Numbered from the stretch's first letter, positions 14,242-42,844 are shown. The stretch is 64,000 nucleotides of DNA from Lama guanicoe (GCA_013239625.1 MU053588.1:25988-89987), one strand, 5' to 3'. The notes: generated from the sequence alone by a model not told the origin. Program-made: numbers and translations.

Positions 14242-14246
14242 ATCAG

Positions 14247-14505
14247 CTCTAGAATAGGCAAATCTACAGATAGAATGCAGATTAGTGTTTTCTGAGGGCT
14301 CATACATGGGGTCAGGAATAAAAGAGGAAGCCTACTGTAATAGCTCAAGGGTATGGGGTTTCATTTTGAGGTCATGAAAATGTTCTAATATTGGTTGTGG
14401 TGATACATGCACAAATCTCTGAATATATTAAAAAACACTAAATTGTGTACTTTGGGTGAATTGTATGGTATTTGAATTATAGCTCAATAAATGTTATAAA
14501 AAATA
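14247..14505 (+). mobile_element. L1MB-type 3' end
   Basis: tctagaataggcaaatctacaga...gaaaatgttcta...gtgaattgtatggtatttgaattatagctcaataaa. Confidence 0.7.
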
Positions 14506-15371: not shown

Positions 15372-15505
15372 GCGGGAGGAGGTATATAGCTGAGTAGCAG
15401 GGTGCATGCATAGCATGAATGAGGTCCTGGGTTCAATCCCCAGTACCTCCCTATGTATGTATGTATAAATAAATAAATAAATCAAATTACTCCCCCTGCC
15501 CAAAA
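15372..15505 (+). mobile_element. tRNA-Ala-derived SINE (camelid Vic-1-like)
   Basis: A box tagctgagtagc, B box ggttcaatccc, (taaa)n tail. Confidence 0.8.
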
Positions 15506-15700
15506 CAAACAAAAATTTAATGTCTCCTTTATAAATAACAAAATTTAAAAATCCAGTTTGAAAGTATTTGTCTTTAATTTGGTGTTGATGCCCTTTATCT
15601 TTAAAGTACATTACAGAATTTGAGCCTGTTACGCTGCTTTTTGTTTCATATTTGTTCTTTATCATAATAGTACACAACCTCCAATCACCTTTAAAAATCT

Positions 15701-15815
15701 GGGCGGGAGGATATAGCTCAGTGGTAGAGCATATGTTTAGCATCCATGAGGTCTTGGGTTCATCCTCCAGTACCTCCATAATTCAATAAATAAATAGATA
15801 CCTAATTTTTTTCCT
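15701..15815 (+). mobile_element. tRNA-derived SINE (Vic-1-like)
   Basis: atatagctcagtggtagagc...gggttcatcctccagtacctcc plus A-rich tail. Confidence 0.8.
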
Positions 15816-16032
15816 TAAGAAACAGATAAAAGTAGACAAAATTCTATTACAAAGATATTAGAGTATTTTGTGATAATTGTAAATCTCTAAGGGTAGGCAA
15901 TAGGTTAAACTATGGTGAGCTATATGTTATCAATATCTATGTAGTATTTAACAATTATGACTGATCCATAGTAAATGTTCAGGAAAATTTTTTTGATGAA
16001 TTATTCATTGAGATAATCAGATTAAAAAAAAT

Positions 16033-16156
16033 TTGGGGGAGGTATAATTAGATTTTTTAAAAATTTATTTATCTACTTGAAGGTACTGGGGATTGAACCC
16101 AGGACCTTGTGCATGCTAAGCATGTGCTCTACCATTGAGCTATACACTCCCCCTCA
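16033..16156 (-). mobile_element. tRNA-derived SINE (Vic-1-like), inverted relative to the copy at 15701
   Basis: ggtactggggattgaacccaggacc...ctctaccattgagctata. Confidence 0.8.
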
Positions 16157-19100: not shown

Positions 19101-19924
19101 ACGTATAGATACACAAGGGAGTGAGGTGCCTCCCTGCAGCAATGAAAGCAGACAATATTGAGCAAAGACAAATCCATCCATCTCCCATCTCTTGCTAGCC
19201 ACAAAGTCTATTTTTCAGTAAATTTTGTTTCAGATTGTTTTGTTGTTCTTATTACTTAATACAAAAAAGAGCCAATCCTTGCATTGAATGGAGCTTTTAA
19301 ATAATTTGGTGTGATTTTTCCATGAGTGGCAGATCAGCCCCTTCCTCCACTGCTGAATGTCAGTCAGTGTCATGGAAAGTTGTTTGGGGAAATACGTGGC
19401 CTTAGCACACTCAGGATTTTCCCACATAAATGCCATTTCCTGGTGTTTTCTTCCCTTGTGGTCAGAAAGTTCTTCGGGAGTCTTAAGTTTACATGTGTGC
19501 ATGGGAGCAGGGGGACTAGGGGAAATTAGCAATTTGGGTCAAAGTCCTAGATGACACTGTGTTTAGTGGTACCTAAAAATGCACTTCACTGGGGAGGCAA
19601 GAATAGCACATGTCATGACTTCACAGTGAAAAGCAGAGATGACTGGAAAGAGGAGTGCTGTCAGAAGTGATGCTGACAGGGAGGAAGAGTTTTAAGGGTA
19701 AACTGGAGGCAGATGTGAATAAACTGCTAAGCGAAAAAACATAAACATCTTGAGTAAGCTTTCTAAGTTGGAAATAGAAAACCAGAGAGTTTTTTCCTTA
19801 ATAGATTTCAGGCATCTTTTCATCCCTTACTGTTGACTTTCTCCTTTTTTCGTATAAAAATGGATGGAAAAGTGTTACCAAAGAGTGACAGATTATAATG
19901 GTGAAAAGCACAGCTCAGATCAGA

Positions 19925-20112
19925 GGTTCTCAAAGTATGACCCCTGGACCAGCAGTATCAACATCACATGGGAATGTGTTAGGAATGCAGATTCTCAGGC
20001 CATATTCCAGACCTACTGAGTCAGCAGTTTGGGGGCTAAGGCCACTAATTTGTGCTTTTGAGAAAAGCACTCCAGGTAATCTAGTGTGTACCAACATTGG
20101 AAAACCACTGGT
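19925..20112. mobile_element. MER5A-like hAT-Charlie DNA transposon
   Basis: ggttctcaaagt...atgcagattctcaggcc...cagacctactgagtcag...gaaaaccactg. Confidence 0.7.
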
Positions 20113-20451
20113 GTAGTGATGAAGGGTATGGTGTCTGGAGCCAGATGACCATATTACTTAGGGCAATTCATTTGTTTGTTTGTTTCTCATCTGTAAAATG
20201 GTGCCAGCACCAAGCTCACAGTGCAGCGATGAAGACTAAATAAGCAAAGTGTGTAAAATCCTTAGAAGAATGCTTGGCCACCGCCAGTGCTATAGAAATG
20301 TTTAGAGGAGGATGATGATGATGATAGGTGCTATTTTCTTTCTTTTTTTTTTTTTTTCCTTCACAGGCTTCATTTTACAGTTTACAGCAAGGCTTTGTGT
20401 TTACCAGGAGATCTTCTTTCCTAATATCTTAGAGTTATTTTCCGTGGCTCA

Positions 20452-20726
20452 AGGCAGTTTTTCTCAGCATGTGCTCCTTGGACCACTTGCATCAAAAACA
20501 CTTGTGGTGCTTATTAAAATGCAGATTCTTAACCCAGACCCAGAGCGATGATCAGAATTCTCTAGTGGTAATTCTGCATCCAGAAACAGTGCTATAGAAA
20601 TGTTTAGAGGAGGATGATGATGATGATAGGTGCTATTTTCTTTCTTTTTTTTTTTTTTTCTTCTACAGACTTCTTTTTTTACAGTTTACAGCAATTCTGC
20701 ATCCAGAAATTTCAAAACCAATGCCT
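20452..20726. mobile_element. MER5-like element interrupted by a templated insertion
   Basis: gcagtttttctcagc...aaaatgcagattc...; resumes after 20709 with tttcaaaaccaatgc. Confidence 0.55.
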
Positions 20727-22474
20727 TGGATAACAAGGACTGTGATCTTCATTTTGCAAACAGGCACATGAGGCATAGGGGTAGCATATGCTTAGGGAAA
20801 TCCAGAGTCTCAGTAAGACCAGGAATAAGAACTGGATTTCTGACTTTGTGTTATAGTAACAGATTATGCATCTTCTTTGTGGCTTTATTTGCTGTATCGA
20901 GAGTTTGATTTGGGTTGTGCCACTTTGTTTACTGAGACGTAGCACTATTTAATCTAAAAATAACATTTACCTTATAAATCTAGAACTATCAAGAATGATG
21001 AGTTCCTGGAAAATACACCTGGACCATTATCCATCACTCAGCTAAAATTGGTTCAGTTGTGGCTATATCTAATACATCTCTCTTGTGTTACAGATGAAGC
21101 AAAAGGGCTCAGAGAAGTTGAAAAAAGTGTCAAAAGTCACATGACTAGGTATCGGCAGAGCAGAAGAGTAGAGCTTGGTCTCCCAACTGCCAATCCAGTG
21201 TCCTTTCACCATATCCCACTGTCCTAATCCTTGCTGATTTCATGATTTAAAGCAGCACTTAAAATTTTTAAATAATTTTACCTATACTGCTCACATAAAA
21301 TCTGCTCTAAGCAGTTTTTTTCACCTCCTTTAATTTCTTTTACTTAAAGATATGCTAGCATCACATCTTTTTTTTTTATAATAGTGGTAAATCAATAATC
21401 TACTGACAACTAATAACTCAAAGCTCCATTGCATATTGCTTTTTCAACAGTGTGAATCTGACTGTTCTAAAGCAATTAGATTGACTCTTGGGGCTGTGAT
21501 GGAAATGCTTTGGGCCTTTTCACACAGTGCCTACAGGTCTTGTATATATTGTTCTATCACAGTCAAGCTCCCACATAGTGTTAATATGCATTTAGATAAC
21601 ATAGTTCTTAATTTGAGGCCACACAAGGGTATTTATCTGCTCTACAAATCACCTCCATGTAATCGGTGGTGGTCGGGAGGTGCTAATCATGACAGGATCA
21701 CTTGATTATCTTATAAGATGATTTTCTTTTTGTCTCAATTATTTGCACTTTTTATATGATAAATGAACTTTATCTTAATGCAGTCATCTGTCTCCATTCC
21801 TCTTTCCTTCTAAGAGTGGAATACTGGCAGTCTCAGTGCACTCGTACACGACTCCCTCTACCCAAGATTAGTTTCTTTTCATCTTACCTTTAGCTAGTTT
21901 GCTACTACTTATTACCTAGTTAGCTACTCCTCAATCTTTAGGTCTCACTTCAAGTGTTAACTTCTCATTGAATTCTTTCTTTTTTTAATCTTTCTATGGA
22001 AGAATCTCCCTGCCCCCATACCATGCACTCTTTGTAACTTTACAGTGTTTATTTCTTCATGGCACTTATCACCATATGTAACTGTAAAAGTTATTTGTTT
22101 GCTTTTTTATTATCTCTCTATCCACCTAAGACACATATAAGGTCCGTGTGTCTATCAGGTAGATGTTTGTCCCTGTACTAAGCACAACGCCTGATACGTA
22201 GTTCAATCAACATTTGTGGAATGAATAATATGTCTGTGAGTTGGTGTGGAATTTTACAGTCTGCTTAGAGGGGCATGAGTATGTGTTATATCTTGGTCCC
22301 TTATAAAAACTTCTTTTGAGTTACCTCCTTCAGGGATGGGCACTAACATAGACATAGGGTTGTCTACCTACTCAGTTAGCTTGACTCCTGACCCCCAAGA
22401 GCATTTGGACCGTAGTACCTTATTTTAAGTGGATCCATGTTGTCTAGAGCATCCTAGATCATGATGCACTATTT

Positions 22475-22800
22475 TCCAGAGCTTGAGTTCTCTGGTAGCC
22501 TCTGGCCACAGGTGGTTATTGAGCATGTGAAATGTGACTAGTGTGAAGTGCCATATGCCGTGAGTATAAAATACACATTGGATTTTGAAGATTTAGTACA
22601 AAAAAGATAGAATATCTCATTAATAATTGTTGTATTGTTTAATTATTGAAATGACACATTAGGCTGAATAAAATATATTACTACATTTAATTTCATTTTT
22701 TTCTTTTTACTTTTTAAATGTACTACTGGAACATTTAAGGTTACATGTATTGATCAAATTTGCGGCTCACAGTATATTTCTATTGGGCAGTGATGTTCTA
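22475..22800. mobile_element. MER33/MER3-like hAT-Charlie element
   Basis: ttgagcatgtgaaatgtgactagt...gtataaaatacacattggattttgaagatttagtac...atttctattgggcagtg. Confidence 0.65.
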
Positions 22801-24569
22801 GACCTAACTAGTTCACCTCTGTTGTTTGGCGATGCAGACTGAAGGTGATCCACTGAAGGGAATGCCAAAATTGCAAGAGCCTTTCATAGCCTGCTTCACT
22901 CTTGTTAGATGTGTGCTAGGGGAAGGGCTGGCACTTCTGGAGAGTGGCTCAGGTGCCATTTCAGGACTCCCTGAATGTCAAATCATGAGGCCCACATACA
23001 GTTCGTGTCCCAAGACACAGAAACTTTAAATGTCTTGCCAGTGGTCATACATGTTGCTTAAAATAATGCTGGGACCAGAACCCAGGTCTTTCAATAATAC
23101 TGAGTCATTGAATTACTTACAGAAGCACCTACTAATAAAATTACATCTTCCTTTTAAAATGTAATAGTAGAAAAATTTAAAGAATTGTTAATAAGTTATG
23201 CAGGCTTTCCAAAAAAATCAATTAATAAGGAAATTACACTTCAGTCTTCAGATGATTAAATAGAGAGAAAATCATATTGTATACATTGATAAATTAAAGA
23301 AACAGAGATTCCTGTTATTACTGCCACATGTACTATAGTAGAGGATTAAAATGAGATGACCTTTATTTAGTAAAGGAGTGTATGTTGCAAAGCAAAATTT
23401 TAAGAAGTCAAATATGAACATGAAACCTACTTGTAAATAAACACAAATCTAATAATGATTATTTGCATAGCTATAAAAACTCCCTTGGAGACCATACATT
23501 GCAGTTTGGAAAACTGATTGCTATGTCTTATTCCAAAAGCCCTCACCACTGACATATCAGACTTCTCTTCTTAGGTACGGAGAAGGATTTTTAAATAATT
23601 AGCAACATCATCATAATCTTCTGGTTCATTCACTAATTTGGCAAACATTTATTTGGAATCTACTGTATGCCAGGCATCTGTGTGTTCTAGGTGCCCAAGA
23701 TACTACGGTGACCAATGCAGACAAATCTTTGCTCTTTGGAGCTTACATTTCCATGCTTAGGTATTTTCTCAACAAGGAGAACAAAATAAGATGGCAAAGT
23801 AAGTCTAAGCAGAGCTACCTTAAAATGCCACAGGTGACTTTTTTTTTTAAGTTGGGAATTGAAGTGAATTTGAGATTTTTCTATATGCTTTTCTTGGGGA
23901 ATTTGAAAATGGAGGTGCAAATGGAAGGTGCAAAGGCATAAAACACTACCTATCCAGCACTAATTAGTATTTCCAGAATGAAAATGTTAGAAGACACTCT
24001 TAAAGCTTCAAATAAAACAATGAGGCTGTGTTAGGGATTTTCCAATCATTTTTGGGAGGGGCTTGGCATACTTATTCAGCTTTTCTTTCTTCAGCTGGGA
24101 TACCCCAACCAGATGTTTCAGTTCTTACATCCACTAATGCTAGGAACTCCCAGTCAGAACGCCTTCCCTTCTCACTCAACACAGACTCACTCTCTTTCAT
24201 TCTCTCACAGTCCGAGTCCTGACCCTGCCCATGTTGTCTCCCTCACGTGCCCACACTCTCACAGGTTCCCCTTCATCCCTTTCAGAGGTTCCTTAAATAT
24301 GGCACTTTTTCTTAAAGTTCAGCCGGTAGCTGTCTCCATACTCCCTTATAGCTAAGACCTCGGCAAGCAGGGTTTAATCATTTCTTTCACCGACAACAAG
24401 GAGGAAGATTTGATAATTTGCCTAAAATGAGCAGATGCTCGAGAGGACATGTCTCCATCCTACGTCCCTCCCCTCCGATTTAAGTCTCCAATGAAACTAC
24501 TTTCTCCCTCTTTTCCAAGCAAAAAAGGCTGCTTTAACTAAGCATGCAAGACGCCAACACTCTCCTCCT

Positions 24570-25657
24570 CAGTACGCGCAAGTTTCCTTCGCTCTGAGCC
24601 AGCAAAGCTTTGCTTGTCCCCTCACTCCCGCCCACCCTTCCCCCCGCCACTCGGGTTCTCGAGTCATCAGGGAAGGCGAGTGGGTTGAAAGGACTCAGTG
24701 CGGCTACACTCCGCAGCCACCGCCTCCTCCCAGCCGCCGAGGGTTCGGCGCTGGACTCCCGCCCAGCCCAGCAAATGGCAGTCGGATGATTGACAGCGAA
24801 GCCGGCCAAACAGGGAGCAAGACAACTCGAAACCGAAACCGCCCTACAAGGGTTTGGTTGCGGCCAAGCTGCCTCTTTAAACCGGCTTTCCTCCCGAGAG
24901 CACGGAGAGGCGGAAGTGCGGTTTGCGGCCAAACCTAAAGCCTCCAATTAGCCAGCTGACTGGCCCCCTCGGCTCAAGAGAGACAAACGTCTTAACAGAA
25001 ACCCTTGCTCTCTGGGACTCGCTGCTGAGCTCGCGGTGCGGGTTCGTGTGCGCGCGTTCCGCGCCTTGGGGCGAAGCGAATGAGGAGCCACTGCCGGGAG
25101 GTGGGAACGACCTGCCACGGGTGAGATGATGGAGCAGCGTCTTCGGCGGCAGCAGCGGCGGCGGCAAGTGGCGGCGGCGGCGGCAGGGCAGCGGCAAGCA
25201 GCGGCGGCGGCAGGGCAGCGGCGGCGGCAGGGCAGCGGAGGCGGCAGGTTAGCAGCGGCGGCAGCGGCAGGGCAGCGGCAAGCAGCGGCGGCAGGGCGGC
25301 AGCGGCTCTCGAACACACCTCAATGAAAGCGGCGGTGGAAGCTGCTGAGCAGAAAGACGTAAGCAAGCTAACTAGCTGGCGGCAGCGAGAGGGGATGTAA
25401 CCTTTTCGGCTCAAGGCTGCGAGGTGCGTAACCCTGAGCGGACCCAATGCCAGCGTTGCCACAGGTGATTTGATTTCCTGTGACGGTAGCTTAGTCAGCC
25501 AGGCGTATTTCGTAACATTTTTACTTTAAAGTCCTTTTGGACTAGGTGCCATCTGGAGCAGGGGCAAGACCCCTAGTAAAAGTCGTACTGTTGATAGACT
25601 GACGACCAAAATTTTAAGTGTCTCTTCCCGTAACCTCCTCTCCGCTCTGCGAGGCAG
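24570..25657 (+). promoter_or_regulatory. GPR158: CpG-island promoter and 5' UTR of the GPR158 copy
   Basis: Dense CpG directly upstream of the GPR158 ATG; GC boxes (cccgccc about 24627, 24758), ETS site gcggaagtg 24910-24918, CCAAT 24944-24948. Confidence 0.75.
25143..25305. repeat. Degenerate GCG/GCAGGGCA GC-rich tandem repeat in the 5' UTR region
   Basis: Units such as gcggcggcggcagggca seen directly; same motif as 14173-14241. Confidence 0.85.
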
Positions 25658-26559
25658 ATGGGAGCCATGGCTTACCCCTTACTCTTCTGCTTCCTGCTCG
25701 TTCATCTGGGATTGGGAGTTGTTGGCGCTACCCGCGACCCTCCGGGTCGGCCGGATTCCCCTCGAGAGAGCACCCTGAGGGCGAAACAGCACTCCCAGCA
25801 GTGGGCTCGAGCCTCTGCCTCGGACGCCTCAGCTCCCTGGAGCCGCTCCACCGACGGGACCATCTTGGCGCAGAAACTCGCCGAGGACGTGCCCATGGAC
25901 ATGGCCTCTTACCTCTACACCGGGGACTCCCACCAGCTGAAGCGAGCCAACTGCTCCAGTCGCTACGAGTTGGCGGGCCTGCCGGGAAAGTCGCCTGCCC
26001 TAGCCAGCTCCCATCCCTCCTTGCACGGGGCGCTGGACACGCTGACACACGCCACCAACTTCCTCAACATGATGCTGCACAGCAATAAGTCGCGGGAACA
26101 GAACTTGCAGGATGACCTGGACTGGTACCGGGCACTAGTGCGGAGCCTCCTGGAGGGTGAGCCCAGCATCTCCCGGGTGGCCATCACCTTCAGCACGGAG
26201 TCGCTGTCCGCGCCGGCCCCGCAGGTCTTCCTCCAGGCTACACGCGAGGAGAGTCGCATACTGCTCCAGGACCTGTCCTCCTCGGCACACCACCTGGCCA
26301 ACGCCACGCTGGAGACCGAGTGGTTCCACGGCCTCCGGCGCAAGTGGAGGACCCACTTACACCGCCGCGGCTCCAATCAGGGGCCCCGGGGCCTGGGCCA
26401 TAGCTGGCGGCGCAGGGACGGACTTAGCGGGGACAAGAGCCATGTCAAGTGGTCCTCGCCTTATCTGGAGTGCGAGAACAGGAGTTACAAGCCCGGGTGG
26501 CTGGTCACTCTCTCCGCTGCTTTCTATGGGTTGCAGTCTAACCTGGTCCCGGAATTCAG
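25658..26559 (+). CDS. GPR158: GPR158 (class C orphan GPCR/metabotropic glycine receptor) coding exon 1: signal peptide plus most of the extracellular Cache domain; apparently an orphan duplicate
   Basis: MGAMAYPLL...NLVPEFR is colinear with GPR158. 902 nt, donor AG|gtaagg (phase 2). No later GPR158 exon was recognised in the window. Confidence 0.95.
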
Positions 26560-28000
26560 GTAAGGAGGGAAAAAAGATAAAAGCAACGTCTTCTTTCCGG
26601 TTTCATGGTTAGTTGAGCGTGTGGGGAAGGAATGCATGGCTGTGACACTTAACGCCTCCCACTGTCAAAGCAGAGACCCAGGCTGAGGGACACCCCAGGC
26701 AGGCGTATGTGCTTAGGGACAAGAAGCACCCCGCGTTTGTCAGTTTCAAACACTCTGTGAAAACCGTTCTCTCAAGTCAGTTCCCCGGCAAGGGGCAAAG
26801 GACGGGCAGCTCTTGGTAGAGCTGAGCTATGCCCTGTTTCTCTCTAACCCTCCGGAGATCAGAGGGGAGTTCCCCGACAGGGATGATGCACTGAAATCTG
26901 GTGAGCTCAGGGTACGCAGCAAGGTGCAGAGTGACCAGCCTCTCAGAGTTGAGAAGGGAGAGGGAGGAAAAAGAGTTCATTGTTTCGGCTACTTCGGGAT
27001 AGCCTTTGCCCGCTTCCTCCTACATGTGTAGTTTGGGGGCACCAGTTTGTTGTTAGTCAGTTACCAGAGCGCATAATGAAAACAGTGCAATCCCCTCGGC
27101 AGTTCTGTCTCCGCAGCGGGGAGTCAGTCTCGCAGTATAGCTGTCCTCAGGATCCAGGCTTTGCAATTTGGTCACTGTGTTCCTTCTACTCATCTCCCTC
27201 CTTCCCCCAATCCATCTCCTATTCCTTGGTGCCCTCTTTCTCCTGCTTTCAGAGTTAGGCAGACCTAAGGGTTCTCAGCCCTTCACATACAGACAGTATA
27301 TAAACAACCTGGTTGAGTTATCCTAGGGAGGTAGGGATCAGTTCTTACTGAATTCAATTAGGGAGCTTGGAGGAAACAATAATAGTTCTGTATTTTCCTG
27401 CCTCAAGGTATAGCATTTGTGGGAAGGTGCAAAGTTGCAAATTAGCAGGTGGTAACTTATGCTCTGAGATGTGCCTGATCTTTGGGGTGAGGAACTCCTA
27501 AGAGCCCTTAAGAGTGAACGTGAACAGAAAGGAGAGCTGAAACTCCAAAGAGTGCCTGGGAGAGGGTATAGATTGGAATCCTCCTCAAATCCCAGTGGGA
27601 AGAAGGTTTTAGGGGTTGAGCTGCTTCTCTACCTCTTGGGAAACTGGGCAAAAGTGAGAAACGTGTGTGTGCGTGTGCGTGTGCGCGTTTTAATGCCCTT
27701 TTGGCACAAGGACAGGATGATGACTTGGTGAAAGATACCAGCAGGAGCACTGGGTGGCACATGGGAGGAGTCAGAAAACTTGTTTGTCTTGGCATTGTCA
27801 TTTACTGCTGAATGACCTCAAATAAGTTGCTTTATCTTTCTGGGCCTCAGCTACTTATCAAGTAAGGGAGTTAAACTAGATGGTCTCGAAGGAGCCATCC
27901 AGTTATAAAATTCTGCAGCTTTTAATACTGGCAATGCTTGAGAAGGCATAAATGAAAAGCAACCCCATTCCTTCAATTCTGTAGGACCATATTAGATGTT

Positions 28001-28032
28001 TGTGTGTGTGTGGTGTGTGTGTGTGTGTGTGT
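28001..28032. repeat. (TG)n microsatellite
   Basis: Seen directly. Confidence 0.9.
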
Positions 28033-29312
28033 CCTTCTATCTCTTTCACAAGCATCTTGTCTGAAACCAGCATAACTCTTTCCTACTTTAAGGATAATCT
28101 CATTTCCTCCTGATTCCTGCAGGATCCTATTAGTAAGAGCTGAGCCTAGCTTTGAATCTTTGCCATATTGTTCGCTCAGAAGAGGAAAGATCAGCAGATG
28201 CCATTTACTTCCAGAAAATTGCTTTTGGCCTTCACATAAGCCTTTTCAGGGAGTCCCAGGTCCCAGGATTGAAAGATGGATCCTATCTATCTATCTATCT
28301 ATCTCTTACTAACATATATTTTATGTTACGCTCCATGCTAACTGCTTTGCATGCATTATCTTGATCAATCCTCACAACATTGTATGAAATTAGGTTTTAT
28401 TAATTTCCCTATTTTACCAAAAAGGAACCTGAAGAACAGAGAGATTAAGTTTCTTTCCCAAGATCACAAAGCAGCTAAGTAGTAGAGCCAGGATTTGTGC
28501 TCATTTCATACTTTAACCACTATGCTGAACTGTCTAATGAAGGTGTCCTGAGTGCTGCATGTATTATAGCTGCTGTGTAAAAATATATGTATTTTCAAGG
28601 GTCAGACAAGGGGCTGGGGATGAGAACCATTTATTTTCAGAAGTATGTCTCTGAAGGCTTAGAAAGTACAGGTCACCTAAATGAACTCAGGCCTTCTGCT
28701 AGCCAAGATAAAAGGCTGGAAACACAAGGGGTCTGAGGTTGTGAAGGCTCACATACCCCCTACCTAGTTCTTGGACTATGTTCAGAAAATAGTTTGTTTC
28801 TTGCTGAGTCTCTTTAAGTGCCCTCATAGTCATCGATGGTGTTCTTTGACCAAGGCATGAAGCCAGGCCATTTAGTGTCCGGCTCTCTGCAGAATCCGGC
28901 CCCTCCTGGCAGCATGCATGACCAGCAGAGTAAGCGCTCTCCTGTGAGTGCTTCTGCCCATGTCCTGTGCCCCTCAGGTGCAGTATTGAGGATTCACACA
29001 GATGTTAATTATAGGAACTGGAAGAAATCCTAGGTCAGATGGTTCCTCCTGTTTCACAGATAAAGGAGCAGATCAGAAAGGTGGAGTGACTTGCCCAAAA
29101 ATCACATATCAAGTTTTTAACAACAGAAATAGGATCCAGGCCTTCTGCGTCTGGTTCACACTATGCTTGCCATAAATATATGCTTAAAGCACATTTCTGT
29201 GGCTCTCTGGGCCTATGCACACAACTTATGTTGGGGGCATAGTTTACTCTCTATCATCTTTTAGGACCAAAAAGAAAAAAAAGCCCATATAACACAGCTG
29301 TTGATTTTTTTT

Positions 29313-30267
29313 TAATTGAAATATAGTCAGTTTACAATGTTGTATCAATTTCTGGTATACAACATAATAATTCAGTCATACATATACATACATATATTCA
29401 TTTTCATATTTTTTATTATAGGTTATTACAAGATACTAAATATCATTCCCTGTGCTGTACAGTAGAAACTTGTTTATCTACTTTATGTATAGTAGTTGTA
29501 TCTGCAAATCTCACACTCCCAATTTACCCCTTCCTAAGCTCTTCCCCAACTGGTAACCATCAGTTTGTTTTCTATGTCTGTGAGTCTGTTTCTGTTTTGT
29601 AAATAAGTTTGTCTTTTTTTTTTTTTTTCAGATTCCACATACGTGATATCGTATGGTATTTTTCTTTCTCTTTCTGGCTTATTTCACTTACCATGACACT
29701 CTTAGGTTCATCCATGTTGTTGCAAATGGCATTATTTTATTATTTTTTATGACTGAATTGTGTTCCATTGTATAAATATACCACAACTTCTTTATCCAGT
29801 CATCTGACAATGGACATTTAGGTTGTTTCCATCTTGGCTATTGTAAATAGTGCTGCTATGAATATTGGGGTGCAGGTATCTTTTCAAATTAAAGTTCCTT
29901 CTGGATATATGCCTAGGAGTGGGATTGCTGGATCATATGGAAAGTCTGTTTTCAGTTTTTTTAAGGAATCTCCATACTGTTTTCCATAACAACTGCACCA
30001 AACTACATTCCTATCAATAGTGTAGGAGGAACCTCCTCTAGCATTTATCATTAGTGGACTTTTTAATGATGGCCTTTCTGACTGATGTGAAGTGATACCT
30101 CATTGTAGTTCTGATTTGCATTTCTCTGATAATTAGCGATATTGAACATTTTTTCATGTGCCTACTAGCCATTTGTATGTCTTCTTTGGAGAACTGCTTG
30201 CTTAGGTCTTCTGCCCATTTTTGGATTGGATGGTTAGTCATTTTATTAAGTTGTATGAGCTGTTTAT
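29313..30267 (-). mobile_element. 5'-truncated L1 (3' UTR plus ORF2 C-terminus) with target-site duplication
   Basis: Minus-strand ORF2 peptide [11 protein letters not shown]...[23 protein letters not shown]; poly-T at left; TSD acagctg(t/c)tgattttt on both sides. Confidence 0.9.
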
Positions 30268-31449
30268 ACAGCTGCTGATTTTTTAAAAAATATTATATTG
30301 TTTACTTCAGACATTTAAGAAAAAATATTTCAATGTGTCTTTTCTGTCTCTTCAAACTCAAAAGGGAAAGGTTTTTTATATTGTTGATGTTTTATCATCT
30401 AAGATATGTATTCTAAAATTTTATAATGTAAGTGAATAGTATATGACAGGTATGGTAACAGGGTAAACCACAAATGAATTTTTGGGAAGCCATGGGAGCT
30501 CTTAGTCATGATTTTAAATACATTTTGAATCTACAGAATGTTATTTGCAAAAATAAGGCTTTTAAAAATCAGTATCAAAAAATCTATTGGTAATGATTTC
30601 CTCATGGAAGAAGAGAAGAAACTTTGTAGTTAAGATTTTCATTTAATTTCAGTTAATATTTCAGCTACAGTTTCCTCAGGTCTAGCATACAAGATTCAAG
30701 CATTTAAATTACATTTTATTTTTAGAGAGTATAAATCCGATACATGAAATTCAAAAGTAATGTGGAGAACATGCTCAATTATCGTCTTATATTAATGCTT
30801 ATCACTGTAAAACACCTCTCAGAATAAATTTTATTCCCCTGTTTCAGAATGATACAAGTTTCTTAAATTCTAAGGCCTGGCATAAAACTCCCATGGGAAG
30901 AGAAATTTACTGCTCATTTCTTTTTCTTCCCCCCTAGAAGTGGCGTCAGTTGCTTTACCTAAATGGCTCATGAGTCTTTTGTTATAGACTTAACAGTGTA
31001 ACTATTTTAGGCCTCATCTTCCATTCCAGCAAATAAAAAAGTGAGAGTAATAATTTAAGGTATACCCTAAATTACTTTTATTTATCACATTAGGTTTGTG
31101 ATGTCTTCGTAGAGTTTTCTTTAAAGTTAAGTCCTTTAGTTTTGCATATTAATTTTTCTGTGTGGAACTTTAAGTACTATGGAATTGGATCTCATTTTGC
31201 AAAACCATAGATACCTTCCTGGTGGTGGCTGGAAATGTTCAGCGCCTAGGATGAATGCAAGTGTTTGTTGAATTTAAATTAAGGTAAAGGGAACTTTGAG
31301 ACCTAATTCTTACTTTATGAGCAGTAAGGAATTTTGGAATTCATTTGATGTCTTTCGTCTTCTCATTGCACAGTGGAGAAACAGACCCAAAGGGCTAAAG
31401 GAATTTGCTAGGGTGACGTAGCTCTTTGGGGTGTGTTAGAATTAAGACG

Positions 31450-31990
31450 TTTATAGAACATCCATCCAGAACACATTCTCCTCAAGCACACATGGAACAT
31501 AATGCAGGATAGATCACATGTTAAACCACAAAACAAGCCTTAATAAATTTAAGACTGAAATCATATCAAGCAAGCCAGAATGGTATGAAACTAGAAATCA
31601 ATTACCAGAAGAAATTAATTTCTAGAAGAAAACAGGAAAATTTATGAATATGTGGAGGTTAAATAACATGCTCCTGAACAACCAATCGGTCAACGAAGAA
31701 ACTGAAAGAGACATTTTCAAGCATCTAGAGATAGGTGAAAATGGAGGTATAACATACCCACGCTTACGGGACACAACAAATGAAGTTCTGACAGGGAAGT
31801 GAATAGTGACAAAGTCTTACATTAAGAAACAATAAAAATCTTAAACAATCTAAGGTTATAGTTCAAGGAACTAGAAAAAGAACAAATTAAGCCTAAAGTC
31901 AGTAAAGGAAGGAAATAATGAGATTGGAGCAGAAATACACAAAATAGACACTAAAAAGGCAATGGAAGAGATGAAACTAAGGGTTGGTTA
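31450..31990 (+). mobile_element. Internal L1 ORF2 fragment (end of endonuclease region), degenerate
   Basis: ttctcctcaagcacacatggaacat...gatagatcacatgtta...aaggaactagaaaaagaacaaattaagcctaaagtcagta. Confidence 0.8.
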
Positions 31991-32514
31991 TTTCTCCAAA
32001 GTTTAAAGGAGAGTACTGCAGGAGCAGTTGGGCAATACTTACTAGTCTTTGTATAACCTAAGCTCACTGATTAATGCTTACTGCAGCACTGTTTATACTA
32101 CCAAAATATTAGAAATAACTTAAGTGTTCATTAATAGAAGAATAGATGAAATGTGGTATATTCATACAGTGGAATACTATGTAGTTGTTAAAAGGAATGA
32201 ACTAAAGCTGCATGTACTAACATAGATAAATCACAGTTTTGTGCAAAAAACCCCCTAAGCCAAGTTACAGAAAGATTACACACACACAAACACACACAGG
32301 ATACCACCATATACAGTTGTTTTATCAACATGGAATATTATATTCTATAGAACTGATAGGTATATAAAAAAGTAATGAAAGTATAAAATTACACACAGGA
32401 GTAATGATCACCACCTTTAGGATGGGAGAATTCTTTTAGAATTCTCTGAAGACAAGGGAAGGAAATCAGACTGGAGAGGTCTAAGATTTAGTATCTTATG
32501 TTGACTGGTGGGTA

Positions 32515-32630
32515 CATGAATGTATTTTATTATCCAAGTCCTTTGTATTTAAGAACTATTTCAAAAAATGATCATGAATGTATTTTATTATCCACGTCCT
32601 TTGTATTTAAGAACTGTTTCAAAAAATGAT
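32515..32630. repeat. 58-bp tandem duplication (2 copies, 2 mismatches)
   Basis: catgaatgtattttattatcc...tcaaaaaatgat x2. Confidence 0.9.
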
Positions 32631-35141
32631 CCCAAATTTTCACTAAAGAATTTTCAGCTTTAATAAGGAAGAAAATTGAAGGGGATGTGAGGTGCTCTGC
32701 AAAACTACTCTAAGTGCTAGAAGTACTTTCTGTGATGGCATCATCATCACTATAAAACAGTCTACTGCGTTTTTCATCATCAGGAGTTTACATTATACTG
32801 AATCACATCAAGCAGCAAAATCCAAATGTTAATAAGAAAAATAACTCATAATTCAACAAATAAAAACCATGCCCAAGTTTATTTTCAAATGGTGATGCTT
32901 GAATGTATAATATACCCTAATATGTACTAAGATTTATTTTAAAATGCAGGTAATAAAAAGTAGTTTTTAAAAAGAAAGTCACAGTAATTTAAGTAACTTT
33001 CACTAAAACTTAAAAGTACTCTGTACTCATTCAAGCAATCGATAATTATGTTTAAGACAGTCTCCTGCCTATTAGAAAGAGGCTAGTTTCAAAGAAAAAA
33101 AAAGAAACACGTTTAAAAAAACTAATAAGACATTTTTACATGACAATATCAACAATAAAAGGGCAAGAAAAATGTGCTAAGTAGAAATATACTTGGGTGT
33201 TAATAACATACTAAAGATGCAGATGAAATTAAAGAGTGCAAAGAGAACAGGAGAAAGCTATTGGTAATGGTGTGCATGAAAAAAGGTGAAGGTAATACAT
33301 TAAAAATAATGTATCTTTGATAAGAAAAATAAGAAGATAAAGTGAGAAAGGGCCCCTAAATGGAACACATTATGCGGAAGAAAAAGCTAAGAAGTGAGAT
33401 GAAGTGGTTTCAAGAGTTATAGAAGAGAAGTGATGTAAAAGAAATCGAGACAGGAAGGGTAGAATCAGATTATTCAGATGGCTTTAAAATTAGGGAAAGA
33501 GACAACTATAGGAATCTGAATATAAACTGAGAAAGGGCTGAGAATGATAAAAGAAAAGAAAATAGAAAGGATAAATATAAGAAACACGGCAAAGTTTCTT
33601 ATGGGGAGGTAACTATAAATTAATGAGAGGAAGGTGTCAGGAATTAATCAACAACTTTGACTCACTGTATTAAAATGGAGACATTTCAGCTTTTGAATGA
33701 TCCCTCCATGTAAAGAATTGAAGAAGCAAGACAAGGGTGAACAAGGCGATGGAAGAAACACCACACAGACGAGAGCCCTACAAGAGTCTAACTGCAAGTG
33801 CCATGTGCTATGCTGGTGGGCTTACATCAGAGGCCAAAGGTTCTTTGCAGTAATTTTGATATTCTTGTAGAAATGGTTTATTTAAAGAACATTTCCTGCA
33901 AATGGCATCAGTAATAATGTACCTCTTTCTGGATCCACACAGAGTCTTCTAAAGTTCCAGCAATTTCAAAAACTACCACTTAGTAATGCTATAAATATAC
34001 GTGGATCAGCCAGAACCAACTTTTACCTATTCACCAAAGATAAATGTCCTTTTCACACTTGGAGCTAACTGTCAGCTTTGAAAACATTCCAACAGCTATG
34101 CTGCAATGTTGTTCTTTCCTTCTCTCTAACAAATTTTAGTTTTGGAATGTTATTTTACTGCAGAAAGATATATGAAACTAACCTATAACCATAAATATTA
34201 GCTTCCCAACTTATCTTCCCCCTGCAAATTAAAAAAAAAAATTTAGTGCTCCCACATCTGCTGAACATCTATGACGTGCCATCTTGGTGTGACCACTCGT
34301 ACACTGCCCTGGACTATATATGCACATACACGTATGCTATTACAATATAAACCTAGAGGAATACATGGTTCTTTTTTTAAAGGCAATTTATTCACTCAGA
34401 ATTCCTTGCATCAGTACTCCACCTCCTCCGCACTCCCACCCCTCAAAAAACACTCAAAGTTTTAAGAGGCTTCCATTTAGAAAAAATAATTAATTTTGTG
34501 TACCTCTTTGCAAAGAAAAATTATAGACCCAAATAGGCATTAGTAGTCCCAAGGACAAACCTCTCTCAATCACACTGCACAGTTTAAGACAAGCGAAAAA
34601 AACAAAAAAAACCTGCCTGTAAGAAATAAAAACAAAAATAGAAGATATTCCAGATTTGTTGTCCAGGTTGACTGTGAACCAGGAAAATAAAATAAATGAC
34701 AAGAGAACACTGGGGAGGGGCTGGCCTGCATATCCATTTGCTTTTCAATTAAAACATAATCCTCCCCAAATTGTGAATGCTCAATTTCATATTACTTAAA
34801 AATCCTGTATTAAATTACACTTATAATATTTTATTCCTCCCCTAACCAGGGTCTCTTATAAAGTTGGGAAAGGTTACAGGGTTTATTCCAGTGTCCGATT
34901 TCTCCAACAATGGAGCTCTAACAGTATCACCCTGGGGGGCCGCCGAGAGCGAGCCGGACTGCAGGAAGCACTCCACTGACCACAGCCCCCGTTGCTCCTC
35001 CTGCCTGCCCTTCTCTTCTACTTGAGGACCTCACATTCCTCACAAAAGAGAATCTTATGTCGCTATGCCTTATGTCCAGTCTGTTCTCTGGGTTTACCCC
35101 TTGGTTGTTTTCATTCAAATTCAGAAGTACCTGTAGCGTAC

Positions 35142-35289
35142 CTCGGTGTTTGTGTAATACGTGTTCCACGATGACCGCAGGGACTCCTGACCACCAATAT
35201 CCCACGTGAGAAAATGAGTGTTCTTCATGACTGTTTCTTCAACATTGCTTCCTGTGGTTGGAGACGTATGAACCACTTCATTCATTAAG
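35142..35289 (-). pseudogene. ARL5B: Orphan ARL5B internal exon ([49 protein letters not shown])
   Basis: 148 nt with ttttaacag| and |gtacgc. Arf-family switch I/G3 motif WDIGGQ. LMNE and KNTHFL favour ARL5B over ARL5A. No other ARL5 exons found. Confidence 0.85.
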
Positions 35290-35677
35290 CTGTTAAAAGA
35301 CAGACACCATAAAAGCTCTTGTCAATCCCGAGAACCTGAAGCACATTTTCCCTGTACTTTTATATGAATCAACCTTCCTTACTTGCATCAGTGATGGTAA
35401 TCACTAGCAACAGAAATGGAACCCCGGAGAACATTTGTGCAAATACCTAGACAGAACAAATCCTGAAGGAAGGCTGGTTTTTTTGTACTTTTAATGGAGT
35501 AAACTACAGGCTTGATCTGGATAGAAGGCAACTGTGAGGTGAAGTTGCATTTCTGTGGCCAAAATTCCAGTAGCCCCCATGCCCTGTTACCAGCTAGAGC
35601 AGAACCAATGCCCCATCCTGAAAGAGCAGGTTTCCAGGTGACTGTCATCAACTTGCAAAGTAGTCCCCATTGCACAG

Positions 35678-36275
35678 GTTGATTTCAGACGTGACCCTGA
35701 CCTCATAGAGCCTAATTACAGCTTTGAGGATGCAGTTGACTCCCCTTTCTTATATTCTGCCTGGATGGAACCAGAGGTTCCCAAGACCAAAGTCAGGCAA
35801 AGGAGAAGCTTGAGGAAGAAGCCTTCCCAGGACTGGCAACCTCTGGATCTATATATAAACATCTCCTTGGACACCTGGTACAGGAACACATTAGTTTCCT
35901 GCATTTTGTGGAAAGTGCAGCACAGCTGCCGGCCCCTGCGTCTGTTTTGTGGGAAGCTGCACATCAGGAACATGGTGTTAGCCAGACTGTGGAGATCCTG
36001 GACTTGGTGCAACTGGAATTTATTCAAGAGCTGGACATGTCTGATTGCTTTGGGTTGTTCTCAGGTGAAAGCCAGTTTGCCAGACAAGTAGAACAAATGA
36101 AAAACCTGCACAATCTCACGCTGCCTCAGCCCATCTTTGGGACTACAGCTGTTCACAGGCTGCCGTCCTCCGATGCTTTCAACTCTTTCCTCTCCCGCCT
36201 GAGCTCGCTGGGGCGCCTCCAGATGCTCTGCCTGTCCTCTCCCCACCTCTCAGACCACCTGCACCGCCTTCTCAG
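35678..36275 (+). pseudogene. PRAME/LRRC14-family LRR gene, middle exon, 5'-truncated, 1-nt frameshift at about 35975
   Basis: PLDLYINISL...PLRLFCGKLHIRNM/VSQTVEILDLVQLEFIQELDM...LEQLLR-like LHRLLR|gtgag matches the PRAME family pattern across two frames. The 5' boundary is uncertain. Confidence 0.75.
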
Positions 36276-36937
36276 GTGAGCACAGGGGGCCCTTCTCCCT
36301 ATTCCTTAATGATGGTCTCCACGTCAGGATAGGGCAGGGGACTGAGCCAGGACACACTGGATGCACGTCCCAGCCAGTTGAAGAGTCTAAGGCCCCTTAA
36401 TGAGTGGTAACTCCCAGAGAGGGCAAGTTATAGCCGGGGGGATAAAAAAAAACTCACACATACAACAGGAAACATCCACTAGGCCCTGTACTCCAGCAAG
36501 TCTATTCTATTACACCTATTTTACAGATGGGGGCAACCAGGACCCAGAGAGGTTAAGGAACTTTTCTAAGGTCACACAGCCAGTAAGAGACACAGCCAAG
36601 ATGTGAACCCAGGAAGTTTGTTCCTTTTACCACTTGCTAGACCACCTCTCAGGGAAAATTACCTTCATTCACTGATTCAGCAGATAATTCTTGGGAACCC
36701 ACTGTGTGCCCAATGGAGCTTGTGAATCTTTATAAGGGAAGAGAAGCAGTAAAGGTAAAACGTAGTGGTCATAGTTGACACCCCTGTCCCCCTGCTCCCA
36801 GTGACAACTGCCCTGAAGAATATCTCCAGGGAACTCTTGGAAATCTAACGTCTTGGGTCTGATGACTGGTGGAAGGGAAGCTAGAGATGACAGCAGCCCC
36901 CAAACTTCTACGCATTGGTCATGGCTACTATTTTAGT

Positions 36938-37130
36938 AGAGTTGACCCTGAACACCTGGGTGGGGTAGGGATGCAGTTGAAATTCCGAGGGTAATTTTCC
37001 AGTAGGCTCTCCACAAATAAGGAGTCAAGCAACTGTGGTTCATGTAGTCCTGCAGTAGTATTTACTGAAAAAAATCCACATATAAATGGACCATGCAGCT
37101 CAGAGCTGTGATATTCAAGGGCCAACTATA
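36938..37130. mobile_element. Tigger-derived MITE (MER8/Tigger1-like)
   Basis: Terminal inverted repeats agttgaccctgaaca / tattcaagggccaact flanked by TA. Confidence 0.65.
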
Positions 37131-37467
37131 TTTACTGTTTATTTTATGTGCTTAGCCTTCTAAAAATGATTACCTCTACATCCCGAAAAGACTTAAATGT
37201 TAAGTAATAAGATATTCATCTTACAGACTTGAATACTGAGGCCTGGAAAGGTTGAGTCAGCGACCAGTGTCACACATTCGGGGGTGGGGCTGGTCCCGGA
37301 ACACAGTCACCTGATCACAGAGCAGGTCTTTACATACTGGACCTGGGCCCCGTCTAGGGCCTGGGCTAACCCGGGTCTGTGGGGCTAGGAGGTCTGGTGG
37401 CTCCTGAGAAGGTTCTTGCCCCAGCCCTGCTCTCTGGGAGTGACCCCATGCCGCCGTCTCTCCTCAG

Positions 37468-37996
37468 ATACCTGCCTGATGCCCTGGTGACCTTGGAGCT
37501 CCCCGCCTGTGCTCTTCTTATTCATGATATCTGCTGGCTGTCCCAGAGCCCTCAGGCCTCACATCTGAAAAAATTAGATTTGAGCAAAAATGACCTTTCC
37601 CAGATGGTTCCAGGAGTGCTGAAGGCTCTTCTTAGGGAGGCCTCGGGCTCTCTGCAGGAACTGGTCCTGGACTACTGCAGCCTGAGGGATCCGCACCTCG
37701 TGGGCCTCCTGCCCGCCCTGAGATGCTGCTTCCTCCTCCACAGCCTCAGCCTCTCTGGCAACCGCATCGCCACGTCCAGCCTGGAGAACCTGCTACAGCT
37801 CGTGGCCGAGCTGTCAGGGCTGAAGCTTGTGGTCTGCCCCTACCCTGTCGAGTGCTATGACTACCCAAAGAGCAGGGAGCTGGGTCATATTCAAGAATGG
37901 CGGTCTAGCTCCTTCAAAGCCATGGTTCAGGACATGCTCAGGGCCTTGGGGCAGGACAGTCTGGAGTGGACCTTTACCTCAGAAACCTCTTTCTGA
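37468..37996 (+). CDS. PRAME/LRRC14-family LRR last coding exon, intact (YLPDALVTLEL...LKKLDLSKNDL...LQELVLDYCSL...YPVECY...SETSF*)
   Basis: Acceptor gtctctcctcag|A, phase 2; LxxLxLxxN/CxL repeats; PRAME C-terminal P.ECY motif; TGA 37994-37996. Confidence 0.8.
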
Positions 37997-39149
37997 TGCC
38001 GGGGCTGCCAACCACTCTCAGTGATCTAGTGTCTTTCAGATCATCCTGCTCCCCCAGCTCGAATCTCGCAATCCATTAGCTCACTTCACTCAATAGTTGT
38101 TATATAGAGGGTGAGTGCCAAGCACTGTTCTAGCAGCTGCAGATAAAAGGACAATAAGATCTATTTTTCTCAGGGAACTACTGGTCTACTTGGTCCTTCT
38201 GCTCTACAAACCCATTTCCCATCTTTGTCTGCAGAAACCACTACTCTCCCTGGCGGTATGAAACTGGACAAACTATTAGGCTCTTGATTTGTGAATTTAT
38301 CCATATGTAAAATGGGGGTGAGTGTCTGTTGTCAGTGGGAAGATCAAGGGTGAGGATCTGTAAAGTGCTGAACGGCAGACACGTGTGTATCACTGAGCCA
38401 CAGGTGTGTATGGGGCTCTGTTCCACACTGGAGGTCCAGCGATGGACAAGATACACATGGTCTCCCACAGGCCTTCCAGCCATCTAGAGAAGTCTAATAA
38501 TAATCAAGCTGAAAAATAAACAAGGTAGTTCAGGCAGCCTTAGGTGTTCTGTAAACCTCAGAACTGTTAGAGCCGGGTAGGGGCTTCAGGGACTCTAGTA
38601 AGACAGTTGGGGAGGGTTCTTGATGGGAAGATAAGCAGGGGACACTCCTGGTGAAAGGCAGTGGAAAGGAGCAGCAGCAAAGGCAATGATCCAGAGGCAG
38701 GAAGTGGCTGGGGTGTTCAAGGAAAAGGAGGAAGTTCACCGTGGCTGTGGTGTGGTGAATGATGGAGTCTGGTACTTCAGGTCCAGCAGGACCATGAAGC
38801 CAGCCCTTTTAACAATAAATCAGCTGATGTCCACTCACTCCCTGGACGCTGAATGCTCAGGGCATCTTAAACGGGGATTTCCCACCCAGAGTTCATGGCT
38901 TTTCCAGTAACTCACAACATGGCCTTGTGCACCTCACTTAATTCAAGAAATACTGCCTGAGTTCCGACTGAGTGCTGGACACTCTCCTACAAGTGGGGCA
39001 CCCAGCAGCGAACAGGACGGACAGGTCCCAACAGCTTATGTTCCAGTTGAGACATAGTCAACAATGTCAAACTCTCAAACACTAGTAAGTGCGCTAATGA
39101 AAAGACAGATATAAAGGGATGGAGGGAGGTAGGGTGAGGGGTGCAGGGG

Positions 39150-41290: not shown

Positions 41291-42844
41291 GTCACCTTAT
41301 CACCAGCCCTTTGGATCCCTTATCAGTGATTCCTCAGACTCATTACAATCCCTTCAGTACCCCGAAGCCCACCTACCAGAGAATCTCCCACCCACCCCCA
41401 AATTACAAGACCCCACATACCTGACCCATTGGGACACCCATATCAATCGTAGACTTTCCCTGGACTTCTGAATCAATGATAACCAGACATCTGCTTCTTG
41501 TCACTCCTCAGACCCCTTTATTACTATGTCCCTCAGACCCACCCTCTTCCTCCCAATTCCTAAACCTCAGATTCCTGCCACCCGACTCCTGTTTTCAGTC
41601 CCTCGCACCCAAACTCTGAGCCTCATCCCTCTGCGAGCCCACTTGTTGCCATGGTTTCTTTAAACCGACCTTCTATTTGGGCAGGCCTGGTGCTCCCGCC
41701 TATGACGCTGCTGCCACCCACAGTTACACATGTAGGGCTGTGTGGTGCCAACTACTGAGGAAGAACCTCTAAAGCACGGGACGCTGAGGCGGTGGGTCTC
41801 TAGTGGTGACGCAGGTAGCTTCGCCCATTGAGCTGTTTTTTCCCTGGAGGCAGCCATTCTCGAAAATGTTTCCTACAATTCCTCAGTCTTTGTGGGACCA
41901 GAGTTTTGGGCTGTCCTTGTTGCAATAGAAAATTGACACTGACTTGTTCCCATCCTTTTCGTGGGGACCCTAGCTCTGGCACTGCCACTTCTGCAGCAAA
42001 GCAGCCGCCAGCTTCTCCTGATAATCGACGTGGTATTGGTCATGAGGAAGATGGTGGCGCCCTGCAACCGGTTTCTCTAAGCGCTGACATTTTGGAGGAG
42101 GTGTCAAGCAGCTAGTCCGCTTCTGGTGGGGAAACCAGAGAGGCCGTAGCAAGGGGCTATCTTCCGGTAAGTGCAAAAGGCACTTGGGCTCTGGCTTGCT
42201 GGGGTGGGTAAAGAGGCCCTGGGTGGACAAAGATTTGGGAAGGGGCAGGGCGGGGGGAAAGAAGCTCCAGTGGCAATTCCTATCTGACCCATAGGCACTA
42301 TGTGAAATAATGTTTATTGTTGGCTTAGGTAGGTAAATTTGGGGGTAATTTGTTATTTAGCAATAGATAATACAGTGTCTTGCTGGTCGCCAACATTCCA
42401 GGCACACTCCCTATTTTAGAGTCTTTGCATTTGCTGTTTCCTCTGCCTGGAAGTCTTTTGTGGACATAAGCATTATTAGGTCCCTGACTTTCTTCCGGTC
42501 CTTGTGCATAGCTTCCTTTTGAAGCCTTTCTGGCTTTCTATATCTAAAATTTTACTCCCCTTCTACTATTTTATGTACTCTTTCCCTGTTCATTTCTTGC
42601 TCATTGACAATGATCAGTTTCCCTTTCTGTCTGCTGTTGTACTCCAGTGCAAAGAGCAGTGTGTGGTTCATGGTAAGCACTTGTTATGCACTTGTGGCTC
42701 AATGGATATATTACTTCTAATTAGTGTTCAAGAACTCCCAGTGAGCACATCTAGAACCTGTGGCTCACTCAGATCTCTGTCGCAGCACATCACCTTCCTG
42801 AATTCTTCCTACTTTTCAATTCTATTTTCCTGGCAAAGTGGGTA

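Follow-up and report, generated by a model that had tools for sequence, protein, structure and literature searches.

A GPR158 exon-1 duplicate beside a PRAME-like remnant in Lama guanicoe: probably a decaying version of an old camelid chimeric locus

GPR158 (mGlyR) is a class C orphan G-protein-coupled receptor with a Cache domain, a cysteine-rich domain and a seven-transmembrane region (7TM), the first two of which make up the extracellular region of both GPR158 and GPR179, as described in passages of PMC11437087 (structures in PDB 7she and 7ewl). The PRAME family, according to passages of PMC3037382, consists of testis-biased, cancer/testis leucine-rich repeat (LRR) genes that were expanded by duplication in Eutheria. 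Pieces of both kinds of gene lie on one strand of the stretch of Lama guanicoe DNA analyzed here (G000:C1236:25988-89987; 64,000 nucleotides, none of them N), which we call the window and in whose coordinates all positions are given unless a contig is named. Exon 1 of the true GPR158 encodes residues 1-300, the same as the copy in the window, but in the true gene it is followed by exon 2, the cysteine-rich domain and the 7TM, while the window copy is followed by none of them. The PRAME-like part resembles its family in the LRR C-terminal exon, in two apparently phase-2 introns, in its membership of a duplication-prone and fast-changing group and in a hint of reproductive-tissue RNA, but differs in having no first coding exon and a broken middle exon. 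Among the papers listed in a literature search, none seemed from its title and abstract opening to treat the locus, which is present only as inconsistently named automated models.

As far as sequence can tell, this is a real chimeric locus of a known kind, made by segmental duplication with the parent gene kept elsewhere in the genome. We consider it probable that the window shows an old camelid chimeric locus in its New-World-camelid-type version, one that is decaying in this genome. An earlier note on the same DNA had proposed a gene in which splicing leads straight from GPR158 exon 1 to the last PRAME-like exon, giving a secreted protein of 476 amino acids (aa); from what follows, such a join would at best be a minor isoform, and any function of it conjectural. 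The features on which the argument turns are these:

6775..31445, + strand: segmental duplicate of the 5' part of GPR158, from its upstream DNA through the promoter and exon 1 to 4.9 kb into intron 1
24500..26600, + strand: CpG-island promoter, 5' untranslated region (UTR) and exon 1 of the duplicate, the island kept (CpG counts)
25658..26559, + strand: copy of GPR158 exon 1, 300 codons plus AG, with a phase-2 donor (open reading frame (ORF) scan, PDB and Pfam matches)
31446..31990, no strand assigned: presumed L1 3'-end fragment at the duplication boundary (many genome-wide matches)
31990..35677, + strand: segment X, likewise duplicated, its paralogue lying on contig C3427 (blast homology)
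34850 and 35181 (starts), + strand: alternative terminal exons inside segment X (tails of Vicugna pacos models)
35121..35321, - strand: Arf/ARL-type fragment inside segment X (Pfam Arf, E = 1.8e-15)
35678..36275, + strand: remnant of the PRAME-like middle exon, without the native acceptor and about 7 codons, and with a 1-bp deletion after 35979 (tblastn)
37468..37996, + strand: last coding exon (LRR) of the PRAME-like gene, phase 2, intact down to its stop codon (ORF, homology)
37997..38820, + strand: 3'UTR with AATAAA at 38515 and 38814 (motif positions)
41974..42115, + strand: downstream exon to which exon 1 is joined in the V. pacos model 'metabotropic glycine receptor-like X1' (tail of P0080)

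The frame of the exon-1 copy runs open from the ATG at 25658 to 26557 (300 aa); an AG comes next, and the donor TTCAG|gtaagg lies at 26559/26560. Its product matches human GPR158 residues 1-300 (PDB 7she_A, E = 2e-174), and the match to PDB chain 7ewl_A begins at residue 24 of that product, which is consistent with a cleaved signal peptide. The Pfam family GPR158_179_EC is matched above its cut-off (32.1 bits vs. 28.1) over positions 1-37 of the 96 in the profile, at residues 264-300, indicating that exon 1 stops inside the domain and that the Cache fragment is incomplete. The copy would thus encode a signal peptide and part of the extracellular Cache region. Across 24501-26500 the ratio of observed to expected CpG is 0.69-0.99; 131 of the parent's 152 CpGs are kept in the copy's island, compared with 12/20 and 18/31 in the flanks, and the island as a whole now holds 161. 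Such preservation speaks for a duplicated promoter that has escaped methylation in the germline. The GC-rich, repetitive 5' part of the island (24880-25400) contains long Ala/Gly/Arg-rich open frames on both strands, and is probably 5'UTR or promoter repeat rather than coding.

Genome-wide searches, all of them run on the animal's own 2.05-Gb genome, find three copies of GPR158 exon 1, on contigs C1724, C4070 and C1236 (the contig of the window), each of them near a contig end. Exon 2 was found only on C1724, where it lies about 30 kb downstream of exon 1, and on C4070; a further exon was found only on C1724, and no exon 2 or later exon turned up on C1236. Exon 1 of C1724 agrees with mouse at 277/300 residues and with the dromedary parent-type exon 1 at 297/300; the figures for the window are 266/300 and 286/300, respectively. 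On this evidence the true GPR158 lies on C1724, and exon 1 of the window is a partial duplicate of it. From 6775 (the edge of the parent DNA that was fetched rather than a proven end) to 31445 the window is colinear with C1724, in blastn pieces that are 92-95% identical, with 96.3% identity in global alignments when gaps are excluded; exon 1 itself is 97.3% identical to the parent, with 24 differences in 902 nt and no gaps. Homology to the parent stops at C1236:57432, or window position 31445, and the match of C4070 to the window stops there too, while past that endpoint C4070 and C1724 still match each other. The window and C4070 copies have derived residues in common, which makes them sister duplicates.

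The C4070 sequence is itself a third copy of the GPR158 5' region (C4070:420-1322 and 27707-27823), and it reaches through exon 2 and further. A 1-bp insertion and a TAG stop interrupt its exon 1, and there is a TAG in its exon 2 as well. Camel models of this copy go under the names 'metabotropic glycine receptor-like' or 'GPR158 isoform X2'.

Between the GPR158 duplicate and the PRAME-like remnant lie two pieces of other origin. The sequence from 31446 to about 31990 gives dozens of genome-wide matches at 69-75% identity (query positions 445-994), and by its look we take this repeat to be an L1 3' end. Segment X, which follows, is 91-96% identical to C3427:3149516-3153588 on the minus strand; this homology ends exactly at 35677, and the junction 35677|35678 sits in unique sequence. 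In a test for insertion of the PRAME-like gene into segment X, the C3427 sequence past the breakpoint (3.5 kb tested) did not resume within 120 kb of C1236. The intronless Arf/ARL GTPase fragment at 35121-35321, probably a processed pseudogene, is also present in the C3427 paralogue.

That paralogue (C3427:3124718-3153588, minus strand) lies about 20 kb upstream of ANKRD7-like exons, and a dromedary model (P0036, XP_064345713.1) has a GPR158 exon-1-like start fused to ANKRD7-type exons. From this neighborhood and this model, the GPR158 5' block seems to have founded more than one camelid chimera.

The last PRAME-like exon begins at 37468 after ctcctcag, with 16 pyrimidines among the 20 upstream positions, and stays open for 175 codons until a TGA (37994-37996). 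Its identity is 100% with V. pacos XP_015103989.1 (P0067), 92-93% with Camelus proteins and 62% with a hippopotamus protein, homologues that are named PRAME-like or LRRC14-like by their sources and that carry precomputed PF27089 and PF27091. Our local Pfam search gave generic LRR families only (LRR_1 in this exon, 24.9 bits), and a sequence search of PDB for a PRAME relative returned no PRAME chain, only a designed LRR protein. The ATG at 36037, just past the frameshift in the middle exon, is where the 255-aa V. pacos model P0067, which joins the middle and last exons, begins. The window holds the only match above 90% in the genome to C. bactrianus P0003, the next best being 42%; the remnant is therefore treated as the orthologue, and the view of P0003 as a paralogue was rejected.

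The middle exon is in a far poorer state than the last one. In tblastn with P0003, P0071 and P0075 it shows 95% identity to about 35986 and a change of frame at about 35980, as it does with the hippopotamus homologue, and one base is missing after 35979. Its homology begins at 35678, the rearrangement breakpoint. The camel models have about 7 residues more before the start of the window homology, and in two paralogues from the animal's own genome (L005 and L006) a pyrimidine-rich stretch ending in AG stands just before that camel-model start. This suggests that the native middle-exon acceptor was at the camel-model start, as in those paralogues, which would place it 19-20 nt or so upstream of the breakpoint, in sequence that is lost here; on the same two grounds, the longer camel proteins and the paralogue acceptors, we rejected 35677|35678 as the native start of the exon. 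Dromedary P0071 (480 aa) and hippopotamus P0004 have a first coding exon (the N-terminal ~100 aa) for which the searches turned up nothing in the window (tblastn best E = 0.29) or in the rest of the animal's genome, where matches cover only residues downstream of the breakpoint. Both PRAME-like introns appear to be phase 2, so that GPR158 exon 1 would be compatible with either PRAME-like exon. The CpG ratio over about 35.5-37.5 kb is 0.10-0.30, and there is accordingly no CpG-island promoter there.

What the earlier note had read from the sequence is thus all upheld: the phase-2 end of exon 1 at 26559, by the ORF and the reading of the donor; the frameshifted middle exon, by the tblastn frame change; AATAAA at both 38515 and 38814; and an LRR gene that has no promoter, in that neither a first exon nor a CpG island of its own is present. 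Its remark that no GPR158 exon is recognizable downstream holds along the contig as well, the reason being a partial duplicate and not a large intron.

Farther downstream on the same strand, 41921-42157, which contains the exon of the V. pacos X1 model, has 48% identity over 89 aa to the C-terminal part of a hypothetical protein of black rhinoceros (P0070), the N-terminal part of which corresponds to the PRAME-like last exon. This layout suggests that the sequence there may be an old neighbor of the PRAME-like gene.

In the Old World camels the same two parents are found joined, in the same order, in annotated proteins. C. bactrianus XP_074227225.1 (P0075, 687 aa, called 'melanoma antigen preferentially expressed in tumors-like' by its source) runs in frame from exon 1 into the PRAME-like middle and last exons, and C. 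dromedarius XP_064345691.1 (P0077, 545 aa) has the same exon-1/PRAME-like join, starting from an internal Met. The C. ferus 'GPR158 isoforms X1/X2' (P0081 and P0076; 379 and 378 aa, respectively) consist of exon 1 and the first 66 residues that align with the middle exon. Relative to the Camelus fusions, the exon-1 copy of the window is 94% identical and the PRAME-like gene 92-95%, but the fusions use what is apparently the native middle-exon acceptor and have an unbroken middle exon, whereas the window is without that acceptor, about 7 codons and 1 bp.

The V. pacos models are closer in sequence and different in structure. Those named 'metabotropic glycine receptor-like' X1/X2 (XP_072824807-811), 'probable GPR158' (XP_031537563.1) and 'LRRC14-like' (XP_015103989.1) all map to the window, with exon 1 97.7-98.3% identical and the last exon 100% identical; however, 5 of 300 exon-1 residues differ from those of the window, and in none of the models is exon 1 joined to PRAME-like exons. 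The three mapped exon-1 forms (P0080, P0079 and P0083) end instead in short non-PRAME tails, at 34850, 35181 and 41974. As a rule, alternative isoforms are reported by NCBI only with transcript support. Our comparison of PRAME-like proteins took in two clusters, with 15 (the P0003 90% cluster) and 2 listed proteins, and in 0 of these 17 is exon 1 joined directly to the last exon.

Scripted joins allow the alternatives to be compared within the window. Joining 26559 to 37468, the phase-2 start of the LRR exon, yields an open ORF of 476 aa, exactly the coding sequence that the earlier note had put forward. The join to 35678 is out of frame and gives 310 aa, and those to 35689 and 35722, which had been suggested as other acceptors, do keep the frame of exon 1 as far as the frameshift, giving 434 and 423 aa, respectively. 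With 34850 as acceptor the product is 343 aa, the length of V. pacos P0083, and with 41974 it is 347 aa, the length of P0080, whose tail is 100% identical at 41972-42103; an acceptor at 35180/35181 yields the tail of P0079 (303 aa). The phase match between exon 1 and the last exon is real but not special, since both PRAME-like introns are apparently phase 2. The supposition that the middle exon is skipped in the fusion finds no support in the camel fusions, which include that exon, damaged though it is in this genome. As for the broader idea that duplication assembled a fusion, the GPR158 5' block was copied and camels fuse it, but the specific 476-aa product appears in no listed model. Some reads spanning 26559 to 37468 may exist, although we are doubtful of it.

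Another matter is the pace at which the exon-1 copy has changed. Five derived residues (38, 49, 57, 141 and 158) are common to the window copy and the fused copy of camels, which indicates that the duplication predates the split between Old World and New World camelids. Private exon-1 changes after that number 8-10 per copy lineage and 1-3 in the parent, and between the two camelid lineages the copy differs at 17-18/300 residues and the parent at 3/300; at the protein level the copy thus evolves about six times faster than its parent in both lineages. Codons 25, 155, 174 and 294 set the window copy apart from the other exon-1 paralogues. Pairwise omega for exon 1 is 0.54 between the window and the parent and 0.75 between the window and C4070. 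By hand count, the shared stem has about 10 nonsynonymous and 4 synonymous changes (stem omega ~0.8), and omega for the copy lineage is about 0.8-0.95, so that this stem looks close to neutral.

These observations establish the genomic mosaic, its lesions, the phases and the existence of the models, and they support the following history, in which the order of events, the activity of the promoter and the junctions used in this animal are inferred. Before the two camelid tribes split, the CpG-island promoter of GPR158, its exon 1 and some 5 kb of intron 1 would have been copied in a segmental duplication and placed ahead of a PRAME-like (LRRC14-like) gene, in the same orientation. Phase-2 compatibility would let the strong exon-1 donor splice in frame into the PRAME-like exons, with the annotated fusion ORFs of up to 687 aa as the presumed result in Old World camels. 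In the lineage of the window, the PRAME-like 5' exons would later have been lost in a rearrangement at 35677|35678, together with about 7 codons of the middle exon and its acceptor, and a 1-bp deletion would then have broken that exon. To judge by the V. pacos models, the CpG-rich duplicated promoter may now drive exon 1 spliced to the short, opportunistic exons at 34850, 35181 and 41974; such transcripts would encode the 300-aa GPR158 fragment with tails of 3 to 47 residues, while the PRAME-like remnant would ride along as intron, untranslated sequence or occasional exons.

Several points weigh against decay, or against the strength with which this history can be told. At the indel rate of the flanks, about 3.9 frameshifting indels would be expected per 900 bp between the copies, and yet exon 1 is open; assigning half of the indels to the window copy, the probability of finding none is about 0.14, although the flanks are AT-rich and the expectation is therefore probably overstated. 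Its sister on C4070, by comparison, has suffered both a frameshift and a stop, and the last PRAME-like exon of the window is intact, with a strong acceptor. The window-specific branch has 4 nonsynonymous and 5 synonymous changes (binomial p ~0.05, calculated by hand), which hints weakly at constraint. Two RNA runs from one study, labelled reproductive system, contain 0.37 and 0.34 of the 308 words sampled from 35678-38600, and another RNA run 0.23, figures that are word shares only, unaligned and silent on splicing; by comparison, the share is 0.90 or more in 14 DNA runs from six studies, and the small shares in RNA runs X19 (0.18) and X20 (0.13) are evidence neither way. The Camelus and V. 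pacos models are automated predictions, judged by their names and sequences, the splice junctions at the locus are putative ones that come from gene models and sequence rather than from reads, and the PRAME-like lineage was compared with camel proteins only, which makes the deletion one inferred from proteins.

Other explanations have also to be weighed. The exon-1 copy could be a gene of its own, to which the PRAME-like remnant is irrelevant, with a secreted piece of the GPR158 extracellular region, cut short at about 303-347 aa, as its product. V. pacos P0080, P0079 and P0083 encode exactly such fragments, and the ORF has remained intact despite the expected indels, with the CpG island kept and the balance of 4 to 5 on the terminal branch; but the tails of the three models all differ and are unrelated, the protein has diverged six times as far as that of the parent, the stem omega is near 0.8 and the Pfam domain is cut at 37/96, all of which lead us to consider this reading unlikely. 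Conversely, the remnant could act alone, from the ATG at 36037, as a 255-aa C-terminal LRR protein like V. pacos XP_015103989.1, which is 100% identical over the last exon and starts just past the frameshift, and part of the words of 35678-38600 is present in the unaligned reproductive RNA. Such a gene would have no CpG island or first exon nearby and would be missing about 225 N-terminal residues of the 480-aa camel P0071, and the accession XP_015103989.1 looks older than those of the exon-1 models (a reading of the numbers only); we hold it to be decidedly unlikely. That either junction, at 31445 or at 35677, is a misassembly across repeats or paralogues appears extremely improbable. All three exon-1 copies are near contig ends and an L1 fragment lies at the first junction, but the V. 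pacos models differ at 5/300 exon-1 residues, and so come from other sequence, and their tails at 34850, 35181 and 41974 put the exon-1 copy, segment X and the region past the remnant on one transcript axis; moreover, 35677|35678 is in unique sequence and the window is free of N.

The last reading is that of a working fusion in this animal. In its broader form, an old chimeric gene, dating from before the Old World/New World split and run from the duplicated CpG-island promoter, with a signal peptide and partial Cache fused to PRAME-like LRR, would be functional as the 687-aa protein in Old World camels and would survive here in the 476-aa form, which we think quite improbable. In its narrower form, exon 1 would be spliced directly to the last PRAME-like exon, past the broken middle one, to make a functional, secreted 476-aa Cache-fragment/LRR protein under the duplicated GPR158 promoter. 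Several points favor this: the two exons join in an open frame, the donor is close to the consensus and the acceptor has its 16/20 pyrimidines, AATAAA follows, the CpG island is kept, both exons are intact, and the camel models demonstrate that exon 1 can splice into the PRAME-like gene. Against this, the join is absent from the 17 listed proteins of the two clusters, and the three mapped V. pacos forms use other acceptors, one of them passing 37468 to reach 41974. The protein itself would have a Cache fragment left incomplete where exon 1 ends at position 37/96 of the GPR158_179_EC profile, no PRAME N-terminus, and a signal peptide that would send a normally cytosolic or nuclear LRR protein into the secretory pathway; and the exon-1 copy as a whole evolves nearly neutrally. 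We regard a functional 476-aa product as very improbable, and favor the decaying New-World-camelid-type version of an old chimeric locus.

Two other parts of the window deserve mention. A weak coiled-coil match to CCDC144C at 372-800 (+ strand; E = 5.7e-5, below the Pfam cut-off), a member of the ANKRD26/CCDC144 family, may be related to the ANKRD7-type chimeras of the dromedary models. At 48452-49426 (- strand) an open frame of 325 aa contains at least six C2H2 zinc fingers (Pfam zf-H2C2_2, E = 1e-45) and is probably the last exon of an opposite-strand zinc-finger gene, in a part of the contig that is not GPR158-derived. A Pfam search of 17 other ORFs found only this zinc-finger exon, the Arf fragment and the weak CCDC144C match.

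Young chimeric genes show how new genes arise, and here the same ancestral fusion can be set side by side in Old World camels, where it is apparently intact, and in this lineage, where it is broken, a comparison that amounts to a natural test of whether the fusion was ever under selection. There is also a practical side, since the automated names given to its parts ('GPR158', 'metabotropic glycine receptor-like', 'LRRC14', 'PRAME-like' and 'ANKRD7') could mislead both orthology calls and GPR158 expression counts in camelids.

The PRAME N-terminus carries the BC and Cul2 boxes needed for its role in CRL2; that region is absent in the window and replaced in the camel fusions. The window copy also differs from chimeras such as jingwei, TRIM5-CypA and USP6 in that it appears to be decaying. 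What it has in common with them is the manner of its making, in which a duplicated 5' part brings a promoter and a first exon to another gene by way of compatible intron phases.

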